From an uncultured Chloroflexia bacterium (GTDB lineage Bacteria > Chloroflexota > Dehalococcoidia > UBA2979), in assembly GCA_963728205.1 (NCBI GenBank), contig CAVSIV010000006.1:320001-384000 (forward strand): DNA of 64,000 bases, read 5' to 3'. Within the stretch, counting starts at the first letter, position 1, and each line of letters starts with the position of its first letter. Of the stretch, positions 12,862 through 37,020 are shown in pieces. The notes below the pieces were generated by a model. It did not search any database. It was not told where the DNA came from and saw only the letters and a list, made by a program, of their open reading frames with translations. A program made the position numbers and the translations under genes.

Positions 12862-14127
12862 GTGGTCGTGGCCGTCCGTCGATTGCGCCTCATGCTGGTG
12901 GCTCTGGTCGCTCTGTCTGGGGCTGTCCTCGTTGCCCCTGCCCCGAGTAGCCGGGCATCGGCACGCATCGTGGATCTCGGGCCGGCCGCCCGCTATCCGG
13001 CGGGATCGGTCGCCTTGTTCAGCGTAGCGGAAGACGGTAGCGGGCTCGTAGAGGCCCCCGCACGTTCCCAGACGGCTGTGTGGAACGGGAAGCTTGACGG
13101 TTGCCCGCCCGATCCGGTCGTCGGGATCCCGTTCGCGCTTGTGCGCCTGACGGACGGCTCGTTGATCGCACTGTCCACGATCAGCACGCATGGCCGCGCG
13201 CTCGTGCCGTGGGTCTCGGACTACGAGCGGTTCGGACGTGCGGGATGGTTCGTGGAACCCTGCCTCCTGGACACGTACGACGTGGACGGCACCCGCGTAT
13301 ATGGGCCGGCCGCGCGGAACTTGGATCGCTACGCGGTGGAGGTGAGGGACGGGCGGGTGCTCGTCGATCTCGGCGCCATGACGCGCGGCGAAGCGATTCC
13401 GGGGCGCAGCCGGTACGGAGGCACCACGTATGGCCCTGTGGCGGAGTATCCAACGGCCACGCCTCAGGCAGCTGCAACGGCGTCGCCTGAGGCCGCGCTT
13501 CCGGACTCAGGGGCAACGAAGCCCGTCGACTACTGGTCGTTGACGCCCTCCGGACAGCAGGCGCTCCGCCGTGCGCACCCCGGCGCCTTCCTCGCGCGCC
13601 TGGCGGCCCAGCCTGGAATGGTGCTCCACGTGCGGGAGACCGTGACCGAGGCGACGCCAGGAGTACGCACTACCTACGACTCCTTCGCGCGCATCGACGG
13701 TGACCGCGTAGTGGCCGTGCTCGTGCGGAGACTCGACGCGGTCGGACGCGTCATCGACGAGCAGATCCAGGTCGCCCGGAACACTCGGCTGCCGGACGGA
13801 CACGTCATCACCACGCATCCGCTTCCCACGATCACGGGACTACTGCCTGCGATCGCGCCGGAGTTCGCAAGGACGATGTTTGCGATGCATGAGACCGGCT
13901 CGGCTGCTCAACCGGTGCGCACACTTTTTCTCGAGTCACCGCCAAGCGCCAAGTTTCGTCGTGAGCTGGATATCGACGCGTCGAGTCACGTCGTCGTTGG
14001 ATACCGCACCTTCAGAGTCGATCGCGGTCAGAGAGTCCTTCTCACCTCTCGGACCACGGAGTTTGAGTGGGTACCGGCGCGAAACGCCCCCGCGGAACTG
14101 CCCGCAACGCACTCCATGGGGGGCTAG
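12862..14127 (+). CDS. Secreted Rieske-fold protein lacking canonical Fe-S ligands, plus C-terminal domain
   Basis: DLGPAARYPAGSV ... ALSTISTHGR..VPW ... WFVEPCLLDTYDVDGTRVYGPAARNLDRYAV. Confidence 0.65.
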   Translation: MVVAVRRLRLMLVALVALSGAVLVAPAPSSRASARIVDLGPAARYPAGSVALFSVAEDGSGLVEAPARSQTAVWNGKLDGCPPDPVVGIPFALVRLTDGSLIALSTISTHGRALVPWVSDYERFGRAGWFVEPCLLDTYDVDGTRVYGPAARNLDRYAVEVRDGRVLVDLGAMTRGEAIPGRSRYGGTTYGPVAEYPTATPQAAATASPEAALPDSGATKPVDYWSLTPSGQQALRRAHPGAFLARLAAQPGMVLHVRETVTEATPGVRTTYDSFARIDGDRVVAVLVRRLDAVGRVIDEQIQVARNTRLPDGHVITTHPLPTITGLLPAIAPEFARTMFAMHETGSAAQPVRTLFLESPPSAKFRRELDIDASSHVVVGYRTFRVDRGQRVLLTSRTTEFEWVPARNAPAELPATHSMGG

Positions 14128-14313
14128 GGACGCGGGCGATGCGAACGCTCGGCATAGCGGGATGTGGTGGCCGGGAGTGCAGGGAGATCTCTACATCACG
14201 ACCGAGCAACAACTGGATGATCAGCGGCACGCGCGGCGGACGCTGCCACGTCTGTCGCGCGCCGTCGCGTGGTCGCCGTCGCGAAATGGCGATGCGGGCG
14301 GTGGGCTCGCGTG

Positions 14314-14826
14314 ATGACGATGTCTCTCCGGCGGGCGTCTGCCCTCGCACTCGCCGTGGGCGTTGCACTGGCCGCCGCGATCGCAACGGTCGTGCTCCTC
14401 GTCCCGCGCGCGCCGCAAGTCGTCGTCGTCCCAAGCGCCGGCGGCAACGGTCTCACGGTGCGGCTCTTCTACGTCGACGATGCGGGAAGCGTGATCGCAG
14501 GGGGCTGGCCGCCCGCGCCGAGCGACCGCCCCGCCCGATCGTTCTACCTCGTTGAGAATCACGGAGAGGTTCACGCGCTCGAGGCGGCGGATCCCTCCGG
14601 CACCCGATGCTTCGTGATCTGGAGAGCGGACCTGCAGGCGTCGGAGCGGTTCCCTGGCATCGCAGACGGAGATCGGAAGGGATGGTTCAAGGGGCCGTGC
14701 CAGGGTGAGCTGTACGACCTGGACGGCGCGTGCGTCGCTGGCGTGTGCCGCGCGGGCGATCTCAGAAGCTTCCCGGCCACGCGGTCCGGATCATCGATTC
14801 GGATCGAACTTCCTGCGCCCGGTTGA
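14314..14826 (+). CDS. Membrane-anchored Rieske-fold protein lacking Fe-S ligands
   Basis: FYLV..GEVHALEAADPSGTRC..W ... WFKGPCQGELYDLDG. Confidence 0.6.
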   Translation: MTMSLRRASALALAVGVALAAAIATVVLLVPRAPQVVVVPSAGGNGLTVRLFYVDDAGSVIAGGWPPAPSDRPARSFYLVENHGEVHALEAADPSGTRCFVIWRADLQASERFPGIADGDRKGWFKGPCQGELYDLDGACVAGVCRAGDLRSFPATRSGSSIRIELPAPG

Positions 14827-15120
14827 ACAGGGCGCGGGTCTTTTCTGCCGCACGCTGCATCATCTCCGCTCGTGCCACCAGATCCCGGTAGCGCCGGCGA
14901 CGAGCACGGCCAGGCCCACGCCACCGCCCCAGAATTCGGCCGCGACGAGCACCTTGCTCGATCCCCGCCGGCCGGTGTCCCGATGTGACGAGTGCACGAC
15001 CGCAGGTTCGGGTTGGGCTGACCGGGCGGAAAGCTGATAGCAGTCGATATGGCGTCGTCGGCTGTGTGGGTGCTCGGGCGTGACAACTCGGAGCTCCGCG
15101 TTGCCCGCTGAGCCGGGTGA

Positions 15121-15154
15121 AGTAATTCGCGTCCGTCGCCGGTAGGCTCGTCGT
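15121..15154 (+). promoter_or_regulatory. Leaderless promoter of LuxR-TM gene (GTAATTCG...TAGGCT-6nt-ATG)
   Basis: Same arrangement upstream of the paralog at 30249. Confidence 0.5.
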
Positions 15155-15728
15155 ATGCCTCCGCTCTTCCGCCGCAGCCGCGGCCGCCCACCGCATCCCG
15201 ACATCCTCACTCCGGCGGAGTGGCGGGTCGTCGAGGAGGTGCGCAAGGGGCGCACGAATCCCGAGATTGCCGACGCGCTCGACCTCAGCCCGAACACGGT
15301 GAAGACGCACGTCTCGAGTGCGCTCGCGAAGCTCGGCTTCGCGCATCGCGATCAGCTCGCGACGTGGGAGGGACGGCCCGCGGCCGCCGGGCGTGCGTCC
15401 TCGGCGGCGACGGCGTGGACGGCGCTCCTCGGGCACCGGCGGATTGGCCCGGTGGCCACGGCCGCCGCCGGCGTGCTCGTCGTCGTCGCGGTCGGGATCG
15501 CGGCGCGTGCGGCCGTCGGCTCCGCGCGTGGCGGCGCCGGCGCGGGTGCCGCACGCACGCCCTCGCCGGCGGCGGCGCTCGAGCCGGGTGTCGCGCGGCC
15601 ATGTAAAAGTCCGCGCTGGTGGCCAGCGAAAAGTCCGCACCCTTGAGGTCACGGTGATGCACGAAGCCCCCGGAGCGGGGAATGGTGTGGTTGCGACCCT
15701 GCCATCTCCCCGCTCCGAAGGGGCTCCA

Positions 15729-17189
15729 TTGAAGACCGCGAGGGAGCAGTTGGACATCATCAGCGCGTACGAGCAGCTGGGAAGCTACCGCGCAGTGGCG
15801 GCGCTGTGCGGGACGACCGACAAGACGGTGAAGCGGATCGTCGAGCGCGGGCGCCAGGGCGAGCTCGAGCATCGGGCACGCGGGCAGCGACGACCGCATA
15901 AGACGGACACGGCCAGAGCGCTCGTGGAACAGCGGGTGCGGGAGACCGACGGGCGCATCAGCGCGAAGCGACTGCTCGTGGCGGCGCGCGCCGCCGGCTA
16001 CACAGGGTCGGACCGCAGCTTCCGACGCCTGGTCGCCGAGGCGAAGACGGGCTGGCGGGGCAAGCGGCGGATCTACCGGCCGTGGTTTCCACCGCCCGGT
16101 CAGTACCTCGCCTTCGACTGGGGATCGGAGGGGCGCGTCCACCTCTTCTGCGCCGTGCTGGCGTGGAGCCGCTACCGCTTCGTGCGCATCGCCGCCGACG
16201 AGCGCCAGGCGACGACCCTGCGGCTGCTCGCGGAGTGCTTCGAGGAGTTGGGCGGCGTCCCGGAGCTGGCGCTCACCGATCGCATGGCCTGCCTGCGCGC
16301 CGGGATCGTCGCCAACGTCATGATCCCGCACGCGGAGTACGTCCGCTTCGCCGCGCGTTACGGCTTCCGCCCCGACTTCTGCGAGGCGGCGGACCCCGAG
16401 TCGAAGGGACGAGTCGAGCGGCTCGTCGGCTACGCGAAGAGCGACCTGCTCGTCCCGGCCGGCGGCTGGCCCGATCTCGCCGCGGCGAACCGTGCGGCGC
16501 GCGACTGGTGCGCCGAGGTCAACGCACGTCCGCACGCCGAGACGCGCGAAGCGCCGACGATCCGGCTGGCACGCGAGCGTGAGGCGCTCCGACCGCTGCC
16601 CGCGTCGCGGCCGCTGCTCGCGCGCGGCGAGCGGCGCAAGGTCGACAAGCTGGCGACGGTGCGCTTCGGCTCGGCCCGCTACTCAGTGCCGCACCTCTAC
16701 GCCGGCGGCTTTGTCGAGGTCACCGCCAGCGACGGCGAGGTAGTGATCCGGCGCGACGACGAGGAGATTGCCCGCCATCCCCTGGTCGCCCCCGGTGAGG
16801 CCTCAATCTGCGACGACCACTACGGCGGGCCCCGGTCCGGACCGCGGCGCGCGGTGCGACCGCGCTCGGAGTCCGAGCACCGCTTCCTCGCGCTGGGACC
16901 GGAGGCCGAGCACTTCCTGCGCTCCGCCGCAGCCGCCGGCACGTCCCGCCTGGCGTCGGAGCTCGCGTCCATCGTCGAGCTCGAGCCGGCGTGGGAGCGT
17001 GACGTGCTCGTCCGCGCCCTCGAGCGCGCGACCTCCTTCCGCCGCTTCCGGGCGGCGGACGTGCGCTCCATCCTCGAGGCCGGAGCCGGCGTCGCCCAGC
17101 TCGCCGAGCGCGGCGAGCAGCTCCACCTGGAGCACCTGCCCGCGGTCGCGACGCGCTCGCTCGCCGACTACGCGCTGGTGCGGTCGTGA
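15729..17189 (+). CDS. istA: IS21 transposase IstA
   Basis: N-terminal HTH; FDWG, DRM and DPESKGRVE DDE elements; YSVP. Confidence 0.9.
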   Translation: MKTAREQLDIISAYEQLGSYRAVAALCGTTDKTVKRIVERGRQGELEHRARGQRRPHKTDTARALVEQRVRETDGRISAKRLLVAARAAGYTGSDRSFRRLVAEAKTGWRGKRRIYRPWFPPPGQYLAFDWGSEGRVHLFCAVLAWSRYRFVRIAADERQATTLRLLAECFEELGGVPELALTDRMACLRAGIVANVMIPHAEYVRFAARYGFRPDFCEAADPESKGRVERLVGYAKSDLLVPAGGWPDLAAANRAARDWCAEVNARPHAETREAPTIRLAREREALRPLPASRPLLARGERRKVDKLATVRFGSARYSVPHLYAGGFVEVTASDGEVVIRRDDEEIARHPLVAPGEASICDDHYGGPRSGPRRAVRPRSESEHRFLALGPEAEHFLRSAAAAGTSRLASELASIVELEPAWERDVLVRALERATSFRRFRAADVRSILEAGAGVAQLAERGEQLHLEHLPAVATRSLADYALVRS

Positions 17190-17963
17190 GCCGCGCGGTC
17201 GCTCCGCTCGCCCCCGACCTCGAGTCCGGGCTGCGCCGGCTCAAGCTCGCGCGCATCCGCGCCGTCGCGCCCGAGGTGCTGCAGACCGCGAAGACCCAGC
17301 GCTGGACGCCAGAGGAGCTGCTGCGCACGCTCGTCGAGGCCGAGTGCGCTGCACGCGACGAGGCCAACCTGCGCACGCGCATGCGCACCGCCGGCTTCCC
17401 CGCGGAGAAGCGGCTCGATGACTTCCGGGTCGACGAGTCGAGCGTGCCCGGCGGCACCTTCGACTACCTCGCTTCGCTGGAGTGGCTGCGCGCCCGCGAG
17501 AACGTCTGCCTGGTCGGTCCCGCCGGCACCGGCAAGTCGCATTTGCTCATCGCGCTCGGGCGCGCCGCCGTCGAGACCGGACACCGCGTGCGCTACTTCG
17601 CCGCTGCGGACCTCGTCGAACAGCTCTACCGCGGCCTCGCCGACAACTCGGTGGCTCGGGTGATCGACGGGCTGCTGCGCGCCGACCTGGTCATCTGCGA
17701 CGAGCTCGGTTTCGCCCCGCTCGACGACGTCGGCACGCAGCTCCTCTTCCGCTTCGTCGCCGCGGCCTACGAGCGGCGCTCACTCGGCGTCGCGAGCCAC
17801 TGGCCCTTCGCATCAGTGGGGACGCTTCCTGCCCGAGCCCACCACCGCCGTCTCGCTGCTCGACCGCCTCCTGCATCACGCCGTCGTCGTCACCACCGAG
17901 GGCGACTCCTTCCGCATGAAAGAGGCGCGAGCGAGAGGAGGACCGACCGTGCGCAGACGCTGA
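17186..17963 (+). CDS. istB: IS21 helper ATPase IstB (frameshift ~17815)
   Basis: GPAGTGKS Walker A; ICDELG Walker B; LLDRLLHH...GDSFR in shifted frame. Confidence 0.88.
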
Positions 17964-19519
17964 TCAGGACCAGGGGTGCGGACTTTTGGTTGGCCACCAG
18001 TGCGGACTTCGGTTTGGCCATTGACAGCCGGGGGCGACCACTGGGATAGCGCCGCTTCAGCCCGGAGAGATCAACACCTTGTCCGCATCGCCGTATCCGT
18101 CGGTGTCCATGAGCGCCGTCAACCGCGCTTTCGATGCATCGTCAGTGGATGCAGAGGGCTCGGCACTGCTCTACGACCGCTCGACGGGTCGCGTCTACGC
18201 AATCCGCGGGGTATGGGCCGTCTGCTTCCTGCCATCCGACGGTCCGCAGCCCCTCGCGCTAGCACTGACCCGCTCCGCCAACGGGAACTCAGCTCCTCAG
18301 CGCGCCCTGCTTCTGCGCCTCGATCCCTTCGAAGCGCGCGTGCTCGACGTCCCGATCCGCCCGGCTGGTCCTTGCCTCGGCGACTCCGGTCGGGGCGAGC
18401 ACGATTGGCAAGATCCGCACGCGATTCCGGTCGAAGTCCGCGGCGACCCGATGACCACCGCCGGGAGGCTGCTCCCAACCGGACGCTATGCCTTCGATCC
18501 CGACACGCTGCGCCTCACCTTTCGACAGGTCGAGCCGCCGTTCAACGCGGGACCGCCGGATGGAACGGTGGTTCATCGCTGGCCCGGCGTGCCCGCTGGT
18601 CCCTCGCTGGAGCTTGTCCGCCGACAGGGCCAGACGGACCTGGTCGATACGAACTCCGGACGCACGGTGCTCGTCGGCGTCGATCGCTACGACATCTCCC
18701 CGGATGGGCGGTTACTCGCGACGTACGCGTCCGCGCGGCCCGACGGCCCCCAGCACAGCTTCATCGTCGCCCTCGCCTCCGGGGCCGCGACCCCGATTGC
18801 CGTCGACATCACCGCCGGATTCGCCTGGTCCCCGGACGGTCGCTGGCTCGCCGGTGTGCGGGACGCCGCAAACGGGGGCGTCGTCGCCGTCCGCGTCGGA
18901 CAGACGTCCGGCCCCTCGATCCAGGTCGGCCCTGTGCTGGGTCCGTACCTCGATCGGTTCGCCCTGGGCTGGACGGCGGCCGGCCGCCTGCTGGTGGGGC
19001 GCGGCGGTGGAACCACAAACGAGACAACGGTCGAGACGATCGACCCGGCGACCGGCCGACTCGACACGCTGACCAGTTTGCTCGGTCCCGCGGTCTTCGT
19101 TGAGTCACCCGACGGCAGCGTCGCAGCGACAGGGGAGCGGGGAGTGGTCGCCTTGTACTCGCTGTCCAACGGAAATCGCATGGTTCCGCAACCGCTCGAA
19201 GGCATGGGTTTGACAGGACGGTTCCTCTTCTCCTGGTCCCCCAGTGGGCGCTGGCTGGCCGCGTTCCTTGACAACGGGCAGTCGTGACGCATCCGCTCGC
19301 TCAATCGGTCTGCCTTTGTGGAGGCTCCTCCAGTGGATCTCTCTCGGGCAGGTGGGTGTTGGATCGGTCGTAGCGGCGGGCCGCGCCAAGGCGCGAGTGC
19401 CGGCGGTTCGCGTGCCGAGCTGCCGATCGCGTCAATAGGTGAAGCTGCGGGCGGCGTCGAGCGCGTCGACATCGCCCGGCGCGAGGCGAACGGCGAGCCT
19501 GTTGCGGTAAGCTCCGGCG

Positions 19520-20949: not shown

Positions 20950-22198
20950 TCAGCGCGCCGGCGACTGCCACTGCGTCTGCCATGACACTCCGCCGTCGGC
21001 TGTGTGCAGGATCGCCGAGCGTCCTGTGAACATTGAACCGACGAGCCAGCCCGACGAAGCCGATCGGAATGCGGCGGCGGCCGGCTGCTCGAGATGCGGC
21101 ACAACCGAAGCGGGCGTGCCGACAACGTCGCCGCCGCGGCTGACCAGGACGAACGAGGTCGTCGGCTTGGTAGCGGCCGGCGACCAGCCGAACAGGACGG
21201 CGCCGCTCGCGTCCAGCGCACTGAAGGGTCCAGCTTCCCCCACGTCGAACCGGGCGGCGGCGTCAGGTTCAGTACAGCCACGCAACGACGCATTACAGAC
21301 CACCGTCTGGAAGCCGCCATCGTCTGCACCGTGGTACAGCCAGTAAGCGCAGGTGCCGGCGGCGCAGTTGCCGCGCGCGAGCGCCCAGACCGCCGTCGAT
21401 CCTGCGCACTGAGTGGAGCGAGCGCGACCGAACGCATCGCCGTTCGCCGGGGTGAACGCCTTCGTCCAGGTCCGTCCGGCGTCATGGCTGCGGTACAGAG
21501 CGGCGCTCTCGGTCATCAGCCACCCGTGGTGCGGGTCGCTGAAGCAAACGGACGCCGGGACCTGCGGCGCCGCGACGCGCTCCCACGTGAGTCCCCCGTC
21601 GGTGCTGTGCGCGAGGAACGAAACGCGGCTATCGCCGCGTTCGATGCCCCAGCCGTCGCTCGCCGAGTCGAAGCCCACCTCCTGCAGAGCCGGCGCCGGC
21701 ATCGGTAGCTCCCGCCAGCAGTCCCCGCCGTCGGACGTGACCAGCAGATGCGCTTTCCCGAGCGCCCAGCCGTGCTCCGCGTCGATGAACCGGACCGCTT
21801 GCAGCGCAGCTGTTCCGCGATACTGCTCGGCCCAATGCGCACCCCCGTCGCGCGTCGTGAGGATGCGCCCCGCACCGACCGCCCACCCGCGCGTGTCGGA
21901 GACGAACAGGATGTCGGCGAGCACCGGTGGGGCCGTCGTATCCGCCGCCGGCGTCGCGGTCGATTCACTCCCTACGCACGCGGTCGTGGAGGCTGCGGTC
22001 GTGGTCGGCGTCGGCACGGCGGTGGGCGTGACAGAGCCGGCGATCGCTGCGCCCGGGGACGCGGAGGCTCCTCCGCTCGCGGTGGTGGCTGGTCCGTGAG
22101 CGCCGCTGCAGGCGGTGAGAATTGGCACCAGGACGAGCGCGGCCACCATGCGCGGGCTGATGGCGATCGCTCTCGATGCGCGGCCACGTCTCAGCATG
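20950..22198 (-). CDS. YCF48/BNR-repeat lipoprotein
   Basis: Lipobox ILTAC; F...GWAVG and multiple TxDGGxxW repeats. Confidence 0.8.
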
Positions 22199-22407
22199 AG
22201 CGCTCCGAATCGAATCAGCCTGCCGCCGATGACAGTGGGTGCCCGACGGTGGCCAGAAAGCCAGACTGCCCGACCTCGGGCTCGAGCACCAGATCTCACG
22301 ACGTCGGCCCCACGCGGGCGTCATGCCAGAGCCGGAGCCGGGGCGAGCCGTACCGCGTCCTGGACGCACTACGGGACCAGGACGCTCAGCGCTCTCACCG
22401 CTGCCGG

Positions 22408-25643: not shown

Positions 25644-26345
25644 CTAGAACTCTAGCCGATGGAGCCAGGTACTACTGCCGATTGGCTGCTTTCCACTCGG
25701 AACGGTGCAGTTCGGGTATGGATAAGCGGTATAGCCGCTTTCGCAGTACGGGATTCCGGTTCCATTCGTGTGCTGGTGATTGGTCGGGTGGTTCAGTTGA
25801 TCCCCATCTTGATGCAAGTGCGGGTGATCCCACAAGTTGGGCGCGCAGAGCGGTTGCGTGGACGCAACAGTACCGAGGTACGTACTCTGGTTGCCGGTGC
25901 CGATGGACCAGCTGCTTCCGACGACGCCAGTGGCGTTATCGATGTGGGTGTAGCTCTCCTGCCCAAGGTACGTACCGAACGTGGGATCGTAGAACTCGAC
26001 ATAGAGGCCGGTGCATCCAGAGCCATTGTCGAAGGCGTCCGCATCGACCCCGCCACTGATCCCGTACGTCTTCAGGTACACCGACATGCCGGCATCTGCA
26101 TCAGCCGTGCTTCCCCAGTTCAGGTCGAGCCCTGACGTACCACTTGGCCGGGCATGCCACCCATAGTGGTAGACACCTGAGGTCGCGCTGAGCCCGTAGT
26201 AGATTGCTACTGACTTACCTGTGCTGTGGGCTGATACTTGCGGCGAATTAGCCGCTAGTCCTCCACCTACGATCAAGGCGAATCCGAGCAGTGATGCTAG
26301 CGCCAAGCTCCTAACCCGCCGGTCTTTGAGCACTTTGGTTGTCAC
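25644..26345 (-). CDS. Secreted divergent M23/LytM-like metallopeptidase
   Basis: Signal peptide; WH...GLD, YTHI, YLGTV...HPHLHQ in M23 motif order. Confidence 0.55.
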   Translation of the reverse strand: MTTKVLKDRRVRSLALASLLGFALIVGGGLAANSPQVSAHSTGKSVAIYYGLSATSGVYHYGWHARPSGTSGLDLNWGSTADADAGMSVYLKTYGISGGVDADAFDNGSGCTGLYVEFYDPTFGTYLGQESYTHIDNATGVVGSSWSIGTGNQSTYLGTVASTQPLCAPNLWDHPHLHQDGDQLNHPTNHQHTNGTGIPYCESGYTAYPYPNCTVPSGKQPIGSSTWLHRLEF

Positions 26346-26953
26346 TACTTCACCTCCAGGTCGGTCGTAAGTGCGACGACGGAAGAACTGTCGGGGAAGT
26401 TGAAGGCAGTCAGGATAGTTTCGATCCCGCCGTCCACCCATCGAAGATGGCGCGGATTGGTCTGAGGCGCCGCGATCTTTGGCTCAATGAGTACAGCTGG
26501 TCCGCGTGGAGTCTGGATGGCCTCCGTTCGGGTCCACTTCTGGTCGGCGAGTACGACATCCAATGGCAACTCAGGCGGCCTCCACCTCCGAACGCGGACC
26601 GTCCGCGTGCCGTTACTGTAGGTTGACGTGATGTCGACTGCGCCAGAGGTTGCTCTAGCGCCGACCGCGTCGACAAGCGGTAGCGATCCGACTTGCCCCG
26701 GCACGAGGCCAGGAAGTAACGTTTGTGTCTCCGCAATACCGGCGGCTTGCTGCCACGACAACCGCGCCGTTCCTGGTGGGACCGCGGGCTGAAGCGGAGA
26801 GCCAGGCGGGAGCAGCCGGTAGGCTCCGTGAAGGCGAGGTGCTGATTGCTGGGCGCCGCCCGTCCCCTGCGTAAGGATGAAAACTCCGATTGCAAGGCTG
26901 ACGGCGAGGAGCGCCGGCAGGAACAGTCGGAGATTCTTCATGCGTAACATCAC
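26345..26953 (-). CDS. Secreted/membrane-anchored protein coupled to M23-like gene
   Basis: N-terminal hydrophobic helix; stop overlaps next start (TAGTG). Confidence 0.7.
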   Translation of the reverse strand: MMLRMKNLRLFLPALLAVSLAIGVFILTQGTGGAQQSAPRLHGAYRLLPPGSPLQPAVPPGTARLSWQQAAGIAETQTLLPGLVPGQVGSLPLVDAVGARATSGAVDITSTYSNGTRTVRVRRWRPPELPLDVVLADQKWTRTEAIQTPRGPAVLIEPKIAAPQTNPRHLRWVDGGIETILTAFNFPDSSSVVALTTDLEVK

Positions 26954-27751
26954 TGCTTCTCCTCTGCATGGACAGTGCAGGTGAGCGACGGTTCTGGAAT
27001 CCGACGACCGTCGGCGCGCTCAGCATTAACGTCGGCAGGCGACGGGCGGCGCCATTCGGAAGCCATGCCTCCCCCTAATCGGCTCCGGGATTCTGCAATC
27101 TGGCCGGTTCCCTCTGACATCGCTCTTCTTCGACGGGAGAGTCCGTCTTCTCGGCTAGGGCCGTCCACCCCACTCTTGCTGATATTCATCGTCACTTCAG
27201 ATGAATTGCTTCGTGATCAGCGGGGTTGACACGGAGTGCGATATACGATGATGGCGACGCCGACGCGGTCGTCGCCGTCGGGCCCCGGAAGCATGGGGTT
27301 GGCGCGACAAGGTGCGCTGAGCCAGATGGAAGACAGCGACTAGGAGCACCGACCGCATACCCGGAAGACGGCCATTGCGAGGGGCCCACCGATGAGACCT
27401 TGATTGCTCAACGCAATCAAACCGCGAGGCAGACCTCAACTGAGCGAGAATAGGGGCAACGTGAGCCCTATCGGTCGCGGTCGTTCTGCATGATGCACAA
27501 CAAGCTTGAGCCCGCGTGATGGGATGGTCGAGCGCGCCTTAGCACCCGAACCTGCGGCGGCGGGGCCTGGGGCCAGCCCCCGCAGGCTCGCTCGACGACG
27601 TCCCGCCCGGCCACCCTATCGCGCAGGGAGGCGATCAGCACGGCCCGCGCTCGACTGGATGCCTGCGCCCGCCCGAGCGTGGCGCGCAGAGTGATTCACG
27701 ACACGCTAAGGGGCGAGCGATTCGCAGCAGGCCGAAGAGGGAGATGTGCGG

Positions 27752-28060
27752 TCATTTTCCAATCCGCAAGTCTACTTGCTCAGCCAACGTACGGACATCC
27801 GAATGCGGAGGGCATCCAGCGAAAATGCAGCACCCAGCGTGATTAGCACACCAGAGTGCCAGTTGCTGCCCATTGTGCAGACCGGTCTTTCCGCGAATTC
27901 GCGTGAGGTGAGATCGCACCGTTGGGAGGGAGATTGCGAGATCAGATGCGATTCGAGTGGGTACGTGGCCCACGTAGAATAGCGCGGCTACTTCCGATTC
28001 TCTCCGCGTAAGCTCAACATGATCCGGCTGGCATCTGTCGGACGGTCGTGGAAGCATCAT
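27752..28060 (-). CDS. Small stand-alone LuxR-type HTH regulator
   Basis: LTRRESEVAAL...IASDLAISLPTVRSHLTRIRGKTG; C-terminal WC..H..CC. Confidence 0.75.
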   Translation of the reverse strand: MMLPRPSDRCQPDHVELTRRESEVAALFYVGHVPTRIASDLAISLPTVRSHLTRIRGKTGLHNGQQLALWCANHAGCCIFAGCPPHSDVRTLAEQVDLRIGK

Positions 28061-28259: not shown

Positions 28260-28484
28260 CTAGCGCGCTTTAGGTAAGCGATCATGGTGACCGTTCCGAG
28301 CGGGAAGTCCGAAACCGGACCCGGCGTCGAACAGTCCGCTGTGACCGCCGCCACAGGCGGCGATGGTCACGACCACGGCAGGGAGCGCCACCGCGAGCGT
28401 GAGCCGCATCCACCACGGCCGTCGCCGGTGCGCGCTGGCCGGGTCCGACCCTCGCGGAACGGTCGTAGGCGGCGGCTGGATCAT
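28260..28484 (-). pseudogene. Truncated duplicate of the N-terminus of Rieske-like lipoprotein 30347..30862
   Basis: 28278-28520 is near-identical to 30732-30958. Confidence 0.8.
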
Positions 28485-29135: not shown

Positions 29136-29463
29136 TCACGAGTTCGCGGCCTCGAGGTAGCCGTGCACGGCGGCCGCCACGCGGGCGAAGGTGTCCGGCG
29201 CCTCCCACCCGTTGGAGAGGATCGCCAGCACGTAGGTGCCGAAGGGCGCCTTGACGATGGCGACGTCATGCGCGGCGCCCGCGTAGTCGCCGGTCTTGTT
29301 TCCGACGACGCTGCCGTCGTCGGGGATGCCGCTGGGGATGCGCGAGCGGATGCGCTGCTGCGCGAGCAGGTCGAACACCTGGGCGGCCACCGCGGGCGTC
29401 GGCTTCCCGCGCGCGATCGCCTCGAGCACGCGCGCCATGTCCGCCGCCGTGGTCGGCAGGGCC
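29136..29463 (-). pseudogene. C-terminal fragment of class A serine hydrolase (duplicate)
   Basis: TTAADM...NKTG...HDVAIV; copy of the 3' end of 43655..44851. Confidence 0.8.
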
Positions 29464-30249
29464 CAGGATACCCGGCGTGGCGATACACGGCTCGCCACGT
29501 ATCCCGCAGTACGTCCCGTGGGCGAGCACCCGCAGCGCGATTACGAGTCCGTCGACCACGACCGGCACATCGCGCCAGGGGAGCGTGAGCGATGCGACGG
29601 CTACTCCGGACACCGGAGTAGCAGAGACGGTGACTCGCGGATCAGTTCCAAATCGGTACGCGCGGAAGTCGACCCGCGTCGCGCTGGCCGGCACGACCGC
29701 GCTGACCTTGATCTGAACGCTGCCGACGACGTGGACCGTTCCACCCTTTGGGTCGGCGTGCGAATCGACGTAGGACGGCGTGAGCAGGCGGAGCTGCGCG
29801 GTCGCGGTGTCCCCGGCGGGCGCCGTCCTCGTGGGGGACGGGGACGCGGTGCGGCCCGTAGCGCCGGGCTGCACCGCTGCCCCGCGAAACGCGGCGATCA
29901 CGACAAGTGCCGCGAGCCCGGTTGCGACGGCGCCGCCAACGAGACGCGCAACTCGGGGCACCCCGAGCCCCCGCTCCATCAGCCAGCCGCCGAGCGCGAA
30001 GCCTCGCGTGCGCCTTGCCGAGGACGCCGGTGTTCCGGCCCACGCCGCGAGCGCCAATCGGTCCGAGCAGTCGAGCTTCGCGAGCATGCTCGAGACATGC
30101 GTCTTGATGGTAGGAACGGTGAGCCCGAGCCGCTCCGCGATCTCGGGATTCGAGAGTCCGTCGCGGACACAGTCGAGCACGCGCCACTCGGCGGGGGTCA
30201 GGACGTCGGGGTGCGGCGGCCGTCCACGAGCGTGTCGTCTCCAGGGCAT
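29266..30249 (-). CDS. LuxR HTH - TM - ectodomain protein; C-terminus replaced at duplication junction ~29463
   Basis: RGRPPHPDVLTPAEWRV...TIKTHVSSMLAKL; TM GAVATGLAALVVIAAF; beta-rich ectodomain. Confidence 0.75.
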   Translation of the reverse strand: MPWRRHARGRPPHPDVLTPAEWRVLDCVRDGLSNPEIAERLGLTVPTIKTHVSSMLAKLDCSDRLALAAWAGTPASSARRTRGFALGGWLMERGLGVPRVARLVGGAVATGLAALVVIAAFRGAAVQPGATGRTASPSPTRTAPAGDTATAQLRLLTPSYVDSHADPKGGTVHVVGSVQIKVSAVVPASATRVDFRAYRFGTDPRVTVSATPVSGVAVASLTLPWRDVPVVVDGLVIALRVLAHGTYCGIRGEPCIATPGILGPADHGGGHGARARGDRAREADARGGRPGVRPARAAAHPLAHPQRHPRRRQRRRKQDRRLRGRRA

Positions 30250-30346: not shown

Positions 30347-30862
30347 TCAGTGGCTGCAATCGTCCCGACTGCCGGGGATCAGCGCTGCCGGAGAGAGCGT
30401 CACGATGACGTGCTCGTCGCGGACGCGGACGGGATAGCCGTCGAGGCCGCGCGGCGACGGTCCGAAGACCCGGCACCCCGTGAGCTCGTAGGTCGACCCG
30501 CTGCAGGGGTCACGGAACCAGCCCGTCCCGGGCTCGTCGTCGAATTTGAAGTCAGGGCGCCAGGGCACCGTGCAGTGCCGTGCCGGATGCGAGTCCCTCG
30601 CCGAGAGGGCGAGGATCGTCCCATCCTCGAGATGCACGACGTGGAAGACGATCGTTGCGGGCGACAGATTGGCCAGCGGGACGGGGTACCCGCCGGCGGC
30701 GCTCCGCCCGACTTCGTGACCGTCGGCGTACGCGATCGTGGTGACCGTTCCGAGCGGGAAGTCCGAAACGGGACCGGCGTCGAACAGTCCGCTGTGACCG
30801 CCGCCACAGGCGGCGATGGTCACGACCACGGCAGGGAGCGCCACCGCGAGCGTGAGCCGCAT
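30347..30862 (-). CDS. Rieske-fold lipoprotein lacking Fe-S ligands
   Basis: Lipobox TIAAC; DAGPVSDFPLGTV; ALSARDSHPARHCTVPW; WFRDPCSGSTYELTG.RVFGPSPRGLD. Confidence 0.7.
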   Translation of the reverse strand: MRLTLAVALPAVVVTIAACGGGHSGLFDAGPVSDFPLGTVTTIAYADGHEVGRSAAGGYPVPLANLSPATIVFHVVHLEDGTILALSARDSHPARHCTVPWRPDFKFDDEPGTGWFRDPCSGSTYELTGCRVFGPSPRGLDGYPVRVRDEHVIVTLSPAALIPGSRDDCSH

Positions 30863-31071
30863 CCACCACGGCCGTCGCCGGTGCGCGCTGGCCGGGTCCG
30901 ACCCCTCGCGGCGGCTGGGTCATGGACAGCCGCCGGGGCGTCGGACGGAGGACGACGACACGGTCCTCGGAGGGTCCCTCTCTATGGCAACTGCATGATG
31001 GCGTCGTGCAATTCATGGCTCCCCTGTCGGTAGAGCTTGCCGTTGAACTCGCCATAGCCCTTCGCACTCAA

Positions 31072-31644: not shown

Positions 31645-32151
31645 GCGTTCACGCTAGAAGTCGGGTCCGTCGCCCGCCTCGGCCGCGCGGGCGATTTCTT
31701 CCCTCACTCCGGCGATGGACCCCGAGGCCCGACGAAGGCGCACAGGGCCACGGGCCCCGATCCGGGTGCTCGAGCCTAGAGACCCGGCGGGGGCCAGGTC
31801 ACGAAGATCGCGCTCCCGTCCGGAGTCCAGCGGACGAGCGGCTTGCCGCCCGCATCCCCATCGATGGGCGCGACGGGCGCGGTGCGCTGGACGCCCGTCG
31901 CGAGGTCGACCACCACAATCTCGTACACCTGGCGGTAGGTGTGCGCCGCCGATCGCGCGAACGCGACCTTCGTGGCGTCGGGGGAGAAGACGCCGATGGC
32001 GGCGTCGCGCAGGCACAGCCCGTCGGGTCCGGCGAGCGGGTGCTCGACGAGGATCCCGCCGCACCCCGGCGCGTCCGAGAGCAGCGCCGCGGGCACGCCA
32101 CCGGCGCGTGCGATCCCGTGCTCGTCGGGACGCGCGCCGAAGAATGCGCCG
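31563..32151. repeat. Segmental duplication of 39225..39813
   Basis: Near-identical DNA including the 3' end of a propeller gene, the intergenic region and an MNADRVP start. Confidence 0.9.
31776..32151 (-). pseudogene. C-terminal fragment duplicate of lipoprotein 39439..40850
   Basis: Shared ...VFSPDATKVAFAR...WTPDGSAIFVTWPPPGL. Confidence 0.8.
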
Positions 32152-32244
32152 GATTCGTGCAATCCGCGGAGGAAGATCGCGTGTGGACGAGGGTAACCCC
32201 TTCGGGTGAGCAGGGCCGGGCCTCTTCGTTGTTGACGGCCTGTC

Positions 32245-32264
32245 GTTCTCGCGCATATACGTCA
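32245..32264 (-). promoter_or_regulatory. Degenerate operator-like motif near LuxR 32359
   Basis: Minus strand TGACGTATATGCGCGAGAAC. Confidence 0.35.
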
Positions 32265-32358
32265 TCCTCAGGGGGCCCGGCGCGAAAACCTAGCAGAAGC
32301 CAATGCACTTCGCGCCTCTCCCCGCGGCGGAGGGCCGGTTAGCCTGCAAGGATTCGTC

Positions 32359-32571
32359 ATGACGCTCCCAGCCGTTACCCCCGCCGAGATGAAGATCCTC
32401 CTGTGCCTACTCTCAGCAATGGCCCCGAAACGAATCGCTGAGCAACTCTGCGTCAGTGAACATACGGTCCGCACGCACATCAAGCGCTTGCATGCGAAGT
32501 TCGGCACTCACTCGGTCCCGGAACTAATCCTCACCGCCAGCCGGAAACCACCTCAACCTCCTGCACATTGA
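32359..32571 (+). CDS. Small stand-alone LuxR-type HTH regulator
   Basis: VTPAEMKIL...IAEQLCVSEHTVRTHIKRLHAKFG. Confidence 0.75.
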   Translation: MTLPAVTPAEMKILLCLLSAMAPKRIAEQLCVSEHTVRTHIKRLHAKFGTHSVPELILTASRKPPQPPAH

Positions 32572-33405
32572 AGACGCGCGATGGGTTGCGACGGGAGCCT
32601 CTCGCTGCGGAGTGCCAGACCATAATCGGTGCAGCGAGTCGGCGGATCACCGCTAGTAACGATCTGGTGGCGGATGTGACGCTGTGTGCCTCATCCGCGG
32701 GGGTGTCCCTTACCGCGTAGCGCATTACAGCCGGCGTTGTTTCATTCTCAGGCATGCTGCAAATTACCTTGCAGTATTATCGCTGCCATACTGAAGCCTC
32801 ATGGATGTACGGAAGAGCGCGGCCGCTCGCCACAGAACGGTGTATTCGAGTCTCCAGCGACAAGAGCAGGCGCGGGAGACATCCGCCTCGGTCTTCCGGG
32901 CCGCATCCAGCGGAATTTCGTGAGTACTGATCGGACCCGGCGGGAAGAGATGACTCCGCGTCGTGGCCGTTCATGTCGTTCGCACGGCGGCTACGCGGAC
33001 GGGTCTCAATGGCGCGCTTATCAGACGACATGTAGCTGCTTCGCGGCGCGACTGTGCGAGCGCCTCCAAGCGGCTGCCGTACAGCGGGCCTGGCGGCGTG
33101 ATGTGCCTACCCCGCTGTGAAGCGAGACTGAGCGCGCCCCGAGTGCAAGCCGACGCCCGAGGTTGACCAAGTGAAGGAGCCTCAGGCTGCTCGGTCGGCG
33201 GAAAGCCGCGCGTCGACCCGAGGGACGGTCAGGAATTCGGCAGGGGCGTGCCGCGAGGCGAGAACGTCCCTATAGAGACCTGCCGAGTGAAGTATCGCCG
33301 GCACTGAGTATACCCAATCCTGGGGACGTCAGACTACGGACCATGCGATAGCTTCCGAGTCACGCAGGTGCGACGAGAGGTGTGTAGGACTTCCGGTAAG
33401 GACCC

Positions 33406-33660
33406 GAAACGGTGGAGGTCGCCGGCCTCGTGGTCTGCCGGCCGCGGCCGCTTACCGCCCGCGGCATCGTGTTCCTGCTGCTGGAGGACGAGTTCGGGAT
33501 GGTGAACGTGCTCGTGAGCCGCGAGCTCGCGGCGCAGGAACGCGACGTCATGCACTTGGCGCAGTTCGTGGTCGCGCGCGGTGAGCTCGAGGTGCGCGCC
33601 GGTGAGCAGCGCACGCTCGCGGCGACCGCTCGGCGACGACGGCCGCTCGACCTGACCCCC
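33406..33660 (+). pseudogene. dnaE2: C-terminal OB-fold remnant of error-prone polymerase DnaE2
   Basis: VEVAGLVVCRPRPLTARGIVFLLLEDEFGMVNVLV. Confidence 0.7.
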
Positions 33661-33863
33661 GGAAACCGATCCAGTCGCAAAGTAAGGAAAGCGGCTGCTG
33701 GACCTGAAGCGACTATTCATGGGTCATCCCGAAAGAGGAGAAGGGGGATCGCAAATAGACCGACTCAGATACTTCGGAAGCCACAGTTCCAAGGACTCCG
33801 AGCCCAAGACAGTTCTTTGAAACCACGATGTCCTGAATCCCACTACGCGAATTGAGGGGTGGC

Positions 33864-34643
33864 GTGCTACTAGGAAAGAAGACAATAACAACCATCGCCG
33901 CGTCATCGTGGTATCGCGGCTGGCTTCTGCTAACGCTCACCGTCGGGGCGCTGGCGGGCCCACAGACAGCTCAGGCCTATCACGGGAGAATCGCTGTTCT
34001 ATCCGGAATCTCGGCGAACGTCTGGAATGGAGAATGTTACTACCCGTCGCAGAACTCCACGATTTGGGCACCTTGTGGCACAGCGGGGACGCACTCAGGT
34101 ACCTATACGCCGTTTGATATTGGGAACGGTAATCCGGACCATTGGATCTTCTTCCAGCTCGACTATCTTCCGTCCAACATCGCCGGTGGCTACGTGAAAG
34201 CGTACCAAGACAACACGAACTGTGCGTCATACAGCGACACATCGCCGAATTGGAACGGTCACAAACTCGTTGTGGAATTTCAGTTCTACAACACCAGTGG
34301 GCAATACGTAACCTGGGCGCACGCCGTCTACCAGCACGTCGATACCGAGCGTCTTCCGGACAACACATGGAAAACATGGAACAATCCATATTCGTCCGCG
34401 CCCATGTGGGGTTCACCAGACTACACCCTGAACAACCTTCAGAACGGCGGAGTCTTAGTCGCCGACATCGCCGCGAATGGCTATGCCTCGGGGAGTATTG
34501 GATGCTCGACGGACGAGCACGTACACCAGGAAGGCAACTACTACTCCGAATACAATTACAGTCGGTACTACAACGAGGCGGTGACGGATCGCTGGTCTGA
34601 CATTTTCTACTACGCGCAGCCAGGAATTACCGGGACCTATTAA
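33864..34643 (+). CDS. Secreted divergent M23/LytM-like metallopeptidase
   Basis: Signal peptide AQA-Y; TH...PFDIG, VYQHV, CSTDEHVHQE (cf. STGPHLHFE). Confidence 0.55.
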   Translation: MLLGKKTITTIAASSWYRGWLLLTLTVGALAGPQTAQAYHGRIAVLSGISANVWNGECYYPSQNSTIWAPCGTAGTHSGTYTPFDIGNGNPDHWIFFQLDYLPSNIAGGYVKAYQDNTNCASYSDTSPNWNGHKLVVEFQFYNTSGQYVTWAHAVYQHVDTERLPDNTWKTWNNPYSSAPMWGSPDYTLNNLQNGGVLVADIAANGYASGSIGCSTDEHVHQEGNYYSEYNYSRYYNEAVTDRWSDIFYYAQPGITGTY

Positions 34644-35206
34644 TGATGACACGGTTCATGAGACTAGCAGCGCAACTACCCACTCTACAAGCGTCATTGG
34701 TAGCGCTCGCTCTCGCCGCGATTGTTGGATGGGTCGCATTCGGACACGCGACACACAGTGGCGCCGAGGGTGGAAATCACGGGGACGATCTGGCCCAGAA
34801 ACGGGCGAAACTCGAAATGACGCCCACGGATCTGTCCAAGGCCATCTTTAAAGATCGATCAACAGCACCGACGCCGCTACCAAACCTCTCACGGTACAAG
34901 AATGAACAATGGTACTTCGAAGTCTCGAACTACGATGATCGGGAAATCCCCGAGGCAGCTAAAGCTGCCAATCCAGCACGCAACCCCGCATGGCCTTCAT
35001 TCATACGATGCATGCAAAGCCATGGAATTGGGTCGGAGGTGGCGAACCCAGAAGCGGCCTCCCAACAGGATGTTAACAGCATCGTGCTAGCGGTGAACAA
35101 GTCAGGTCCATTCTACGTGGGAGCGACGAAAGGCCTCGAGTATCGAGCAACGCCAGCTTCGGATGCGTTCCTAGGATGCGAACCTCTGTTGTATCCGACA
35201 CGATGA
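34643..35206 (+). CDS. Secreted/membrane-anchored protein coupled to M23-like gene
   Basis: TAATG overlap; N-terminal hydrophobic helix; two Cys. Confidence 0.7.
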   Translation: MMTRFMRLAAQLPTLQASLVALALAAIVGWVAFGHATHSGAEGGNHGDDLAQKRAKLEMTPTDLSKAIFKDRSTAPTPLPNLSRYKNEQWYFEVSNYDDREIPEAAKAANPARNPAWPSFIRCMQSHGIGSEVANPEAASQQDVNSIVLAVNKSGPFYVGATKGLEYRATPASDAFLGCEPLLYPTR

Positions 35207-35223
35207 AACGTGAAAAGTTCATG

Positions 35224-35254
35224 GGTGCCCGGCGAGAATACCTTGCCGGGCACC
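35224..35254 (+). terminator. Stem-loop (terminator or processing site)
   Basis: GGTGCCCGGCGAG-aatac-CTTGCCGGGCACC. Confidence 0.55.
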
Positions 35255-35298
35255 GTCGCGTCTAGGATAAACCTAGCCTAGCACTCGAAGCGAGAACT

Positions 35299-35982
35299 AT
35301 GCAGACGGAGAACCCGAAGCACAACCGCTTGCTCACTCGGCTCTCACGAATCGTGCTACTGACTACGGTGGCGGCGGTCCTGGCGTCATTTATATCCTGC
35401 ACAGACTCCGGTGGGACTAACTCGAGTGAGCCGACCTCAATTCAAGCTACTCAAGCAACCAGAACTGCGCCAAGCGCAACTCTCTCCGTTGTCGGCGGAA
35501 GGAGCCGTCGAACCGGTATCATCAGCGTGGATCGAATCATTGATCTCATAGAGAGCAGGAGCGTGGATGGACTTCTCCAACTCGTGCAATATCGGAAGAT
35601 GGCCTGTAGTGCACGAACGGTCGACCAAAGAGCACCTGAATGTGCGGTTAACGAGCCTATTGGCACCCTGGTCGACTCCCTGCCGGCAGCGTCATGTGAA
35701 GGCTATTTCGCCCGCGATGCACGACCGTTGCTCGAACTTGTGGTCAGAAACGAACTCTACGCAGTTGCGAGGATGCCTCAACTTCCTGGCTTAGACCCGG
35801 TATTCCCAATCGGACAGTACCGAGTCGTTGTAGCCTCCAATTTGGCGGCGTCACCAACAGGTTGGGCGGTCTTGATTGAAGGCGACCGCATCGTTGGGCT
35901 TTGGTCGAGCTGCGGACATCCAAGGGAACTGCTTCGCATCGGAAACGACAACCCGGACCTGTTGCTTGGCCCGTTCGAATAA
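35299..35982 (+). CDS. Lower-GC lipoprotein with one Cys-rich module
   Basis: Lipobox FISC; RTGIISVD...Y..MAC...APEC...GTLVDSLPAASCEG. Confidence 0.7.
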   Translation: MQTENPKHNRLLTRLSRIVLLTTVAAVLASFISCTDSGGTNSSEPTSIQATQATRTAPSATLSVVGGRSRRTGIISVDRIIDLIESRSVDGLLQLVQYRKMACSARTVDQRAPECAVNEPIGTLVDSLPAASCEGYFARDARPLLELVVRNELYAVARMPQLPGLDPVFPIGQYRVVVASNLAASPTGWAVLIEGDRIVGLWSSCGHPRELLRIGNDNPDLLLGPFE

Positions 35983-36035
35983 GGCCATACCCGGCCGGAC
36001 TTTGCTGATCTCGACCTGCTCGAGCGGACCCCGGA

Positions 36036-36315
36036 TGAATCGCCCCGGGTTTGATGGAGACTCAGTTCATTGAGTCCCGGCCTCCGCCAGGACCTGCGCA
36101 GGGTAGTGGTTGGCCTCGTACTCGGCGGGTGGGACGTAGCCGAGGGCGCTGAAGAGGCGGCGGTGATTGTACCAGTCGACCCACTTCAGCGTGGCGAACT
36201 CGAGGTCTTCGAGGCCGCGCCACGGTCCTTGCTTACGCACCAGCTCGGTCTTGTAGAGCCCGTCCACCGACTCGGCCAGCGCGTTGTCGCAGTCGCCACG
36301 ACTGCCCACCGAGGT
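36036..36315 (-). mobile_element. IS3-family right end with transposase C-terminal fragment
   Basis: DNALAESVDGLYKTEL...WVDWYNHRRLFSALGYVPPAEYE; end TGAATCGCCCCGGG. Confidence 0.85.
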
Positions 36316-36855
36316 CACCACCCCCGCTTCCGCGAGTCAATCAGTCTAGCGGATCGAGAGGTGCCTTGCCGCTGCAGGCGTGTGGGCTCTTTCGGTCGCT
36401 CTTCTCCCTTTCGGGGCCGTCCCCGCGGCCCCTTGGGGCGCTCGGTGTCGGGAGGCTTCGGCTTGGGACTGCGGGGCTGCTCGCGTGCCTCGATGGCCGT
36501 GGCGTCTCGGGAGAGGTGGCCGATCAACCGGTCCTGGTAGGCCTTGCGGATCAACGTTTCGTGAACCCGCTCCGGCAACTGCGTCTGTGCAAACGCGTCG
36601 AACGCGCGGGAGAAGACGGATTCGCTCGGCACCTCGCGCTTGCGCTCCCAGCCGCAAATCCGTCGCAACGGCGCATCGGTTTGCAAGCGGTCCAGCAGCA
36701 TGCGCGTCGTCGGCATGTCGTAGACAGCTTTGGCCACAAAGGCACGGGCAATGGCCGCACGATCCTTCGGCGGGCGCCCGGGGACATGGAAGTGCGCGGG
36801 GTAAGGGGGGATCTGCTGCTCAACGCGGATGAGATCGAGGGTCTCTACCAAGGTA
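36315..36855 (-). mobile_element. IS5/IS1182-like (DUF772) transposase fragment
   Basis: GRPPKDRAAIARAFVAKAVY...LRRICGW...PSESVFSRAF...SRDATAIEARE. Confidence 0.75.
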
Positions 36856-37020
36856 GCTCGTGACGCTCTCCGGCACGAAGCGCTCGAGCGCCCCGAGGTC
36901 GTAGGCCGTCGGGACCGAAGAGTCGTCCGAGGTGCACGCCGCGAGCAACGCAAAGGCAGCGACTAGGGCAAGCACAACGGCCCCGGCAATCCCACTTGCG
37001 ATTGCTCGTGGCTCCGGCAC
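36856..37020 (-). pseudogene. Truncated N-terminus of a Rieske-fold lipoprotein
   Basis: Lipobox LLAAC then YDLGALERFVPESVT (cf. DLGPAARYPAGSV, DAGPVSDFPLGTVT); cut by transposase. Confidence 0.5.

Follow-up and report, generated by a model that had tools for sequence, protein, structure and literature searches.

What does a Rieske domain do once the residues that hold its iron-sulfur cluster have gone? The question is raised by a 64,000-nucleotide stretch of DNA from an uncultured Chloroflexia bacterium (the window, C6:320001-384000 in a genome of 4.1 Mb and 6 contigs, with a G+C content of ~72%), in which an earlier note, made from the letters alone, had described an expanded family of exported Rieske-fold proteins that have lost their [2Fe-2S] ligands. 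We find that this family probably binds or senses something rather than carrying electrons. Our preferred reading, to which we give a probability of roughly one half, is that it forms a cluster-free extracytoplasmic binding or sensing module, built by an old and diversified set of Rieske-derived paralogues.

The five elements that had been claimed, three intact genes and two 5′ fragments, are all present, with the correction that three of them lie on the minus strand. P0001 (12862-14127, plus strand) encodes 421 aa comprising a signal peptide, a ligand-less Rieske-like domain at about residues 40-180 and a C-terminal extension of 240 aa. P0002 (14314-14826, plus strand) encodes a membrane-anchored protein, the most divergent of the ligand-less Rieske-like proteins; its ATG at 14314 gives the start MTMSL, and an alternative GTG at 14269 is possible. 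P0006 (30347-30862, minus strand) encodes a lipoprotein of 171 aa (lipobox IAAC) with a ligand-less Rieske-like domain, and position 30347, under which it had been listed, is its stop end. The three proteins score 182, 126 and 212 bits, respectively, against our family profile (A1), and their pairwise similarities (P0006 with P0001, E 5e-21 and 36% identity; P0006 with P0002, E 3e-10; P0001 with P0002, E 2e-6) mark them as paralogues, with homology far above chance. All three frames are intact (171-421 codons), and G+C at third codon positions (GC3) exceeds that at second positions (GC2) throughout.

The first fragment, previously placed at 28260, is a truncated and frameshifted copy of the P0006 5′ end (28274-28451, minus strand), recognized by its translations and by a direct repeat of 178 nt that is 94-98% identical to 30728-30904 and spans the 5′ end of P0006 together with upstream DNA. 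The second, previously placed at 36856, is probably the N-terminal fragment of a further family member: an open reading frame (ORF) at 36823-37023 (minus strand) in which a LAAC lipobox is followed by a DLG...F..SVT pattern, and which runs into a DUF772 transposase fragment (36315-36953). Since it matches the family profile at positions 22-70 alone, that is, in the N-terminal part, with E 0.007 among 1049 six-frame ORFs, its membership of the family is weakly supported.

The Rieske fold had been proposed together with a way of checking it, structure prediction followed by a Foldseek run, and it stands. The AlphaFold2 model of P0006, built from a 29-row alignment, had a mean predicted local distance difference test (pLDDT) score of 87.2 and a predicted template modelling score of 0.80, and Foldseek placed it closest, within the PDB, to the soluble domains of Rieske proteins, with 8hn2_A (E 5e-6) ahead of 9rk4_A and 9rk3. 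VIA-align superposed the model on 9rk4_A with Z 13.7 and a root-mean-square deviation of 2.2 Å over 104/110 residues, the next two structures giving Z 12.7 and 12.2, and the family profile run against PDB sequences found Rieske proteins with E 1.2e-13 at best. A chance resemblance to Rieske proteins is thus ruled out by the paralogue E-values, the PDB profile matches and the VIA-align superpositions. The N-terminal domain of P0001 was modelled with pLDDT above 90 and its C-terminal extension with 30-70, which is too poor for a fold search. In the standard collections the similarity falls below threshold, in Pfam for PF00355 as well as PF13806: the latter, the best Pfam match, gave 22.2 bits for P0006 (cut-off 27), 12.3 for P0001 and no match for P0002, and among the NCBIfam models searched (PetC, Rieske_proteo) those for PetC gave 18-25 bits against cut-offs of 154-250, the best being 24.7 against 250. 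Weak leads from the ESM Atlas were not used; they linked P0006 to 'Rieske (2Fe-2S) protein' clusters (0.80) and the C-terminal part of P0001 to hypothetical and DUF1571/MucB_RseB clusters (0.88-0.89).

In canonical Rieske proteins box I reads C-x-H-x-G-C and box II C-x-C-H. We read six diagnostic positions in order (Cys1, His1, disulfide Cys, Cys2, disulfide Cys, His2), and the ligand alignment returned the boxes as first described: STHGRA/EPCLLD in P0001 (S,H,A,E,C,L at the six positions), DPSGTRC/GPCQGE in P0002 (D,S,C,G,C,Q) and DSHPARHC/DPCSGS in P0006 (D,H,C,D,C,S). The loss of both Fe-ligating cysteines and of the second histidine is therefore true for all three window proteins. The first histidine survives in P0001 and P0006 but not in P0002, and the old ligand positions have degenerated most in P0001 and P0002. 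The HMMER alignment sets the family's ...GC opposite canonical THLGC, and FRDPCxGS opposite CPCHGS. Because both iron-binding cysteines are replaced, a Rieske-type [2Fe-2S] cluster cannot be bound in the canonical manner. The disulfide cysteines and the G..RVFGP..R.LD scaffold, which the earlier note had called largely kept, are indeed kept in most of the family, but P0001 has lost one disulfide cysteine. P0002 also departs from the family in its Pro loop, which reads ACVAGVC instead of RVFGPxP; the two extra cysteines bring to four the number around the former cluster site, where two disulfides or a different metal site are possible.

The same replacements extend far beyond the window. A search of 1.84 billion representatives with profile A1 matched 4928 of them at E<=1e-3, 1334 at <=1e-10 and 143 at <=1e-30, and a word-based search yielded 26 other proteins (E 1e-24 to 1e-13); some of these relatives carry the source labels 'cytochrome b6-f complex iron-sulfur subunit' or 'Rieske Fe-S protein'. 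We aligned 175 domains, made up of the best 150 profile representatives, the word-search matches and the own-genome copies, leaving out short rows (P0138, P0142) and duplicates of window or other rows (P0040, P0170, P0180-P0182). The canonical CHCCCH set is found in 20 of the 175 rows, and 155 are without it. Among these 155, Cys1 is replaced by Asp in 100 and by Ser in 25, and Cys2 by Asp in 88, Asn in 28 and Glu in 17 (133 together). Position His1 holds His in 91 and Arg in 24, and position His2 holds His in 70, Ser in 33 and Gly in 18. The disulfide pair is complete in 134, reduced to one cysteine in 6 and absent in 15. Because two bases must change to turn Cys into Asp, the acidic pair seems to have been selected, and the non-random replacement by Asp at one position and by Asp, Asn or Glu at the other suggests a selected site and not a free loop. 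Under our preferred reading the former cluster pocket would be filled or re-used by the two acidic residues together with the His or Arg at position His1, and the tip of the domain would serve as a non-redox surface for binding or sensing.

The same pattern could, however, be that of a different metal site, holding mononuclear Fe, Zn, Cu or Mn or an unusually ligated cluster through Asp, His, Asp/Asn and His, or through the two former disulfide cysteines together with histidines; in that case the family would bind metal or carry out redox chemistry outside the cytoplasm and would not consist of cofactor-free scaffolds. The replacements counted above are both metal-friendly and conserved, both histidines are present in 51 of the 155 rows, and in the subgroup with Asn at Cys2 His1 is kept in 24/28 and His2 in 26/28, a retention that fits a metal site as well as a structural one. 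Against it, neither P0001 nor P0002 has a full set of such residues, Arg at His1 (24/155) would be pocket-filling rather than metal-binding, and the two histidines are loosely coupled (both in 51 rows, neither in 45, one in 59). On balance we consider a metal site unlikely, if worth keeping in mind. We place no higher, as a speculative proposal, a related version in which the carboxylate-swapped site is a mononuclear metal centre or a small-ligand pocket, used by Chloroflexota for substrate capture outside the cell, within a conserved acyl-CoA/fatty-acid operon, and as the sensor domain or co-sensor of membrane regulators of LuxR and HAAS type.

The earlier note had further supposed a variable ex-cluster loop, and here our results differ. 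The family motif, ALSxxDxHxxGCTVPWRPDF...GWFRDPCxGSTY...RVFGPxPRxLD behind an anchor or signal, is fitted in full by P0006 and with degenerate tips by P0001 and P0002, and its best-conserved stretches, CTVPWRPDF and GWFRDPCxGSTY, lie in the ex-cluster region itself. Variation is found in the two histidine positions and in the length of the box-I loop, which has 4 residues in 20/20 canonical rows and, among the ligand-less ones, 4 in 100/155, 5 in 25 and up to 15 in others. Conserved tip stretches combined with this spread of loop lengths make the tip a conserved, re-made site with some loop variation.

Where the family comes from can be followed within the genome itself, in which the profile has 11 matches and the ligand-less copies amount to 5 intact genes and 2 fragments. 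Three canonical members of the same subfamily carry CPHLGCTVPWRPEFEF..GWYRCPCHGSTY and an SRRRF twin-arginine motif, and the canonical own-genome Rieske subunit has the CTVPWRPEF...GWYRCPCHGSTY motif in common with the ligand-less copies. One canonical copy (C6:1218636) sits in an operon with cytochrome b6 (PF00033), subunit IV (PF00032) and a cytochrome c/sulfocyanin-like protein, and another, at C4:222, is followed in tandem by the ligand-less P0036 (C4:893); a further ligand-less copy is found at C6:1544916. The family descends from the Rieske subunit that this lineage of Chloroflexota has in a quinol:cytochrome c complex of b6 type, with a split cytochrome b.

In a FastTree tree with a weak backbone (73/172 inner branches unsupported), the canonical subfamily members form one group, and the ligand label changes 3 times, compared with a mean of 19.2 for shuffled labels (0/500 shuffles as low). 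The nearest relatives of the window proteins are foreign (P0112 for P0001, 53% identity; P0122 for P0006, 65%), and P0002 has a branch length of 1.49. Few state changes and foreign nearest relatives indicate that the ligand loss is old and that the window copies are old paralogues. The tree rules out that the three window genes arose locally by recent duplication. The term 'expanded family' is thus true of the genome, with the restriction that its copies are closer to other organisms' sequences than to each other.

The profile, which also matches the canonical form, was found in 24/24 other genomes of the same family and in 11/16 other families of the class. Loci with the peptide GWFRDPC in named genomes are titled Chloroflexota, Chloroflexia or Dehalococcoidia metagenome-assembled genome in 27 of 28 cases, and the exact DNA-level motif occurs in 2/401 genomes sampled evenly over the phylum. 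Copy numbers reach 7-8 per genome. In related genomes, strongly diverged ligand-less Rieske genes also stand in tandem, two or three together (L063, at G012:C15:113644-115312, L066 and L057), and some of them have inter-box loops of 30-40 residues.

The head domain is kept outside the cytoplasmic membrane by way of an N-terminal anchor, a signal peptide or a lipobox. The lipoboxes claimed for some members are those of P0006 and of the fragment at 37023; the N-terminus of P0001 resembles a signal peptide, and that of P0002 forms a hydrophobic anchor. By a rough heuristic, 133/153 ligand-less sequences have an N-terminal hydrophobic segment, and a twin-arginine translocation (Tat)-like RR motif is seen in 33/133 ligand-less versus 7/11 canonical sequences; in the other 4 canonical sequences the simple Tat scan picked extra upstream helices instead. 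The drift from the Tat motif would fit the loss of a cofactor that has to be inserted before export. It touches the metal-site alternative on both sides: about a quarter of the family is still Tat-like, as that alternative would have it, but P0006 is a Sec-type lipoprotein and most members are without the motif.

That most members retain the parent's anchor, with an aromatic-x-W/Y-P hinge and the tip motifs of the canonical subunit, raises another possibility, namely that they are non-redox 'dead' subunits which still bind to a redox complex of the membrane and have a modulating or stabilising effect on it. The host would be one of the four Rieske/cytochrome b complexes of the genome or an oxidoreductase with NarI-like, FeS and CCG domains described below. 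The absence of cytochrome b nearby, already pointed out in the earlier note, bears directly on this: the 4 cytochrome b genes of the genome (PF00033) all lie outside the window and none is among its 28 ORFs, nor did a Pfam scan of 92 neighbours in 28 named loci of homologues find cytochrome b. No ligand-less locus that we examined therefore adjoins cytochrome b, and each own-genome cytochrome b already stands beside a canonical Rieske gene. Furthermore, the anchor is replaced by a lipobox in P0006 and by a cleavable-looking signal in P0001, and tandem arrays, 7-8 copies per genome and fusions to propellers or helix-turn-helix (HTH) domains are ill-suited to a fixed subunit. We regard such a docking role as improbable.

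Elsewhere in the genome lies a conserved operon (C6:1538000-1552000, L024), in which two enoyl-CoA hydratases (ECH), 1-2 ligand-less Rieske genes and an AMP-binding acyl-CoA synthetase follow one another with intergenic gaps as small as 4-20 bp. The arrangement recurs in L059, L067 and L070. Three of the four relatives sampled have it (G019, G004 and G005), and it was absent among the 5 loci taken from the fourth, G012; it is also present in 11/28 named loci, with a 12th that is partial because the contig ends. In our own genome and in G019, G004 and G005 the operon is followed by a membrane protein with NarI-like, Fer4 and CCG domains, which places the conserved copy two genes from a possible redox host for a docking subunit. 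Under the binding or sensing reading, this copy would be co-transcribed with genes of acyl-CoA metabolism, and the operon may be the ancestral home of the ligand-less family.

The accessory copies of the window have other neighbours. About 10 genes of the 4.1-Mb genome belong to an N-terminal GerE (LuxR-type) HTH subfamily at more than 60 bits. In four cases such a gene comes immediately downstream of a ligand-less Rieske gene or fragment: P0002 is followed by P0183, the truncated copy by P0034, P0006 by P0033 and P0036 by P0035. P0183, P0033 and P0035 have an N-terminal HTH followed by a transmembrane (TM) segment, and the adjacency of gene and regulator is as for a ToxS-like partner. Within the window, P0183 is represented by its 5′ part (15155-15606, plus strand; GerE E 1.4e-14), which is interrupted by an IS21-like element (15602-18026, plus strand, outer ends approximate) encoding IstA, with rve and Mu-transposase C domains, and the IstB ATPase, and bearing 39-nt imperfect inverted repeats at 15607-15645 and 17971-18009. 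The ORF placed after this element (18079-19287, plus strand) matches the Pfam PD40 beta-propeller and is possibly the remainder of the interrupted regulator. P0034 (27752-28354, minus strand), directly downstream of the truncated copy, is a GerE HTH ORF in which no TM segment was seen. P0033 (29266-30249, minus strand), 97 bp downstream of P0006, combines a LuxR HTH, a TM segment and an extracytoplasmic segment; it seems to lose its coding character over the last ~60 codons (GC3 0.54), where it meets a beta-lactamase-family fragment. This fragment (Beta-lactamase2, PF13354; 120 aa, 29136-29498, minus strand) has a core-like GC3 of 0.94 and apparently truncates P0033. For the outside domains of P0033 and P0001, no relatives turned up in this genome or among 120 LuxR-family matches.

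Direct fusions point in the same direction as the gene pairs: two metagenomic proteins join a TM segment and a Rieske-like domain to a GerE HTH (P0069) or to HAAS (P0077), and other family members have propeller (LVIVD or PD40) or lyase-like extensions. A search with profile A1 for longer homologues gave no match in the 738-2105 aa that it covered; fusions of 300-700 aa lie below that range. The window accessory copies would work beside LuxR-type regulators, mostly membrane-bound ones, which would either control them or use them as co-sensors on the outside. The genome's ~10 N-terminal LuxR/GerE HTH + TM regulators have varied outside or C-terminal domains (propellers, Kelch, VOC; for example C6:400813-403384 and C6:469925-474951), and such a family seems typical of these Chloroflexota.

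Several observations weigh against the binding or sensing reading, its regulatory part included. No N-terminal GerE gene was adjacent in 20 loci from four related genomes (0/20), and none of the 120 LuxR-family relatives of P0033 has a Rieske-like domain. A GerE gene is present in 4/28 named loci, but all four represent one synteny with an ammonium transporter, and there the GerE domain is fused to a cytoplasmic glyoxalase/VOC domain and not to a TM segment. The adjacent regulators may control the Rieske-like genes without contacting their proteins. A complex prediction for the outside domain of P0035 (residues 105-494, 4-row alignment) with the domain of P0036 (residues 38-172, 24 rows) gave a score of 0.01 (mark 0.32), which counts neither for nor against contact. 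The partners in the acyl-CoA operon are cytoplasmic enzymes, so that synteny gives no direct mechanism for an exported domain. The histidines kept in part of the family count here too, and the empty pocket is itself a reading from sequence and predicted fold.

The condition of the window adds to these points. Its copies sit in a rearranged region rich in insertion sequences (IS), with fragments and IS elements around them, and the GC3 of the window genes (0.77-0.85) is below that of core genes (0.90-0.95); decay of some window copies may have taken place. Taken further, the window copies could be relics, carried into a mobile-element-rich island, that have no present function and are drifting into pseudogenes, a state that need not hold for the family at large. 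Fragments make up two of the five elements, the neighbouring regulators are broken, P0183 by the IS21-like element and P0033 by the beta-lactamase-family fragment, and the low GC3, the degenerate ligand positions of P0001 and P0002 and the long branch of P0002 agree with such a drift. This account is nevertheless hard to reconcile with intact frames of up to 421 codons, GC3 above GC2, intact export signals and a confidently predicted fold, and P0001 is conserved, since a 53%-identical relative exists elsewhere. We therefore hold it to be improbable for the window copies as a set and continue to prefer a binding or sensing module.

Around these genes, two low-GC islands (24000-28000 and 32000-36000; 0.55-0.64 compared with ~0.72) are probably foreign DNA. 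Their ORFs have no Pfam match apart from one GerE ORF at the edge, and PADLOC, run on 10 of them, returned zero defence matches. A short UPF0236 (transposase-like) fragment lies at the edge of one island (23975-24466, plus strand), and a BNR/YCF48-like propeller protein at 20950-22299 (minus strand). Three large ORFs of 544-658 aa on the minus strand (37024-38856, 7873-9849 and 10002-11636) have coding-like GC3 and no Pfam match, the first of them with a lipoprotein-like start.

Comparison with known systems helps to delimit the family. With the Rieske subunit of cytochrome b6f/bc-type complexes (9rk4, 9rk3, 8hn2) it shares the fold (Z 13.7-12.2), sequence homology (profile E 1e-13 to 7e-10), the N-terminal anchor, the disulfide-position cysteines, the Pro loop GPxPRxLD and a lineage-specific insert, TVPWRP(D/E)F. 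It differs from that subunit in having neither cluster cysteine and often no second histidine, in scoring below the Pfam and NCBIfam cut-offs, in its multiple, tandem and fused copies without adjacent cytochrome b, and in mostly lacking the Tat motif. A closer parallel for the loss of the cluster is NirD (Rieske_2, PF13806), the small subunit of assimilatory nitrite reductase, whose fold is Rieske-like but in many species lacks the cluster ligands; PF13806 was the best, though sub-threshold, Pfam match of P0006, and PDB 4aiv, which we take to be a NirD / Rieske_2 structure, is among the Foldseek matches of its model. However, NirD is a cytoplasmic partner of NirB, whereas the ligand-less family is exported or anchored, derives from a respiratory Rieske subunit, keeps the disulfide cysteines and has acidic replacements; no nitrite reductase domain was found among the scanned window neighbours.

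Cyanobacterial PetC paralogues are likewise extra Rieske-subunit copies with diverged roles. PDB 5cxm (PetC3) matches P0006 with VIA-align Z 11.7 and the family profile with E 2.2e-8. PetC paralogues are known to retain the cluster, and in this they differ from the ligand-less family. On the regulatory side, ToxR/ToxS and CadC are membrane-bound one-component regulators with an outside partner, and the gene for an exported small protein directly upstream of an HTH + TM + outside-domain regulator (P0183, P0033, P0035) recalls them, except that the HTH is of LuxR/GerE and not of OmpR type, that the pairing is not general in the family and that it is known here from gene adjacency. Cluster-less Rieske-like folds are thus known from NirD, whereas neither Pfam nor NCBIfam has a model for the present family, which is exported, acid-substituted and keeps its disulfide. 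Full-text literature searches (subscription journals not covered) and the Rieske passages of PMC11724291 gave us no account of ligand-less exported Rieske proteins, nor a statement about NirD ligands.

These results matter for how Chloroflexota genomes are read. A Rieske domain is taken as a sign of electron transfer, and several members of this family have received the names of respiratory subunits from automatic annotation. With at least 1000 sequence clusters that lack canonical cluster binding, reconstructions of soil and aquifer Chloroflexota therefore over-count respiratory complexes, and a dedicated profile would split the family from true Rieske proteins. The ordered swap of Cys for Asp with the disulfide kept offers a clean natural case of a redox fold re-used outside the cell, and an entry both to what fills a former iron-sulfur pocket and to what the abundant N-terminal-LuxR membrane regulators of the phylum sense. 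If the less likely proposal of a metal- or ligand-binding sensor were true, an electron-transfer domain would have been turned into a receptor for signalling and uptake.

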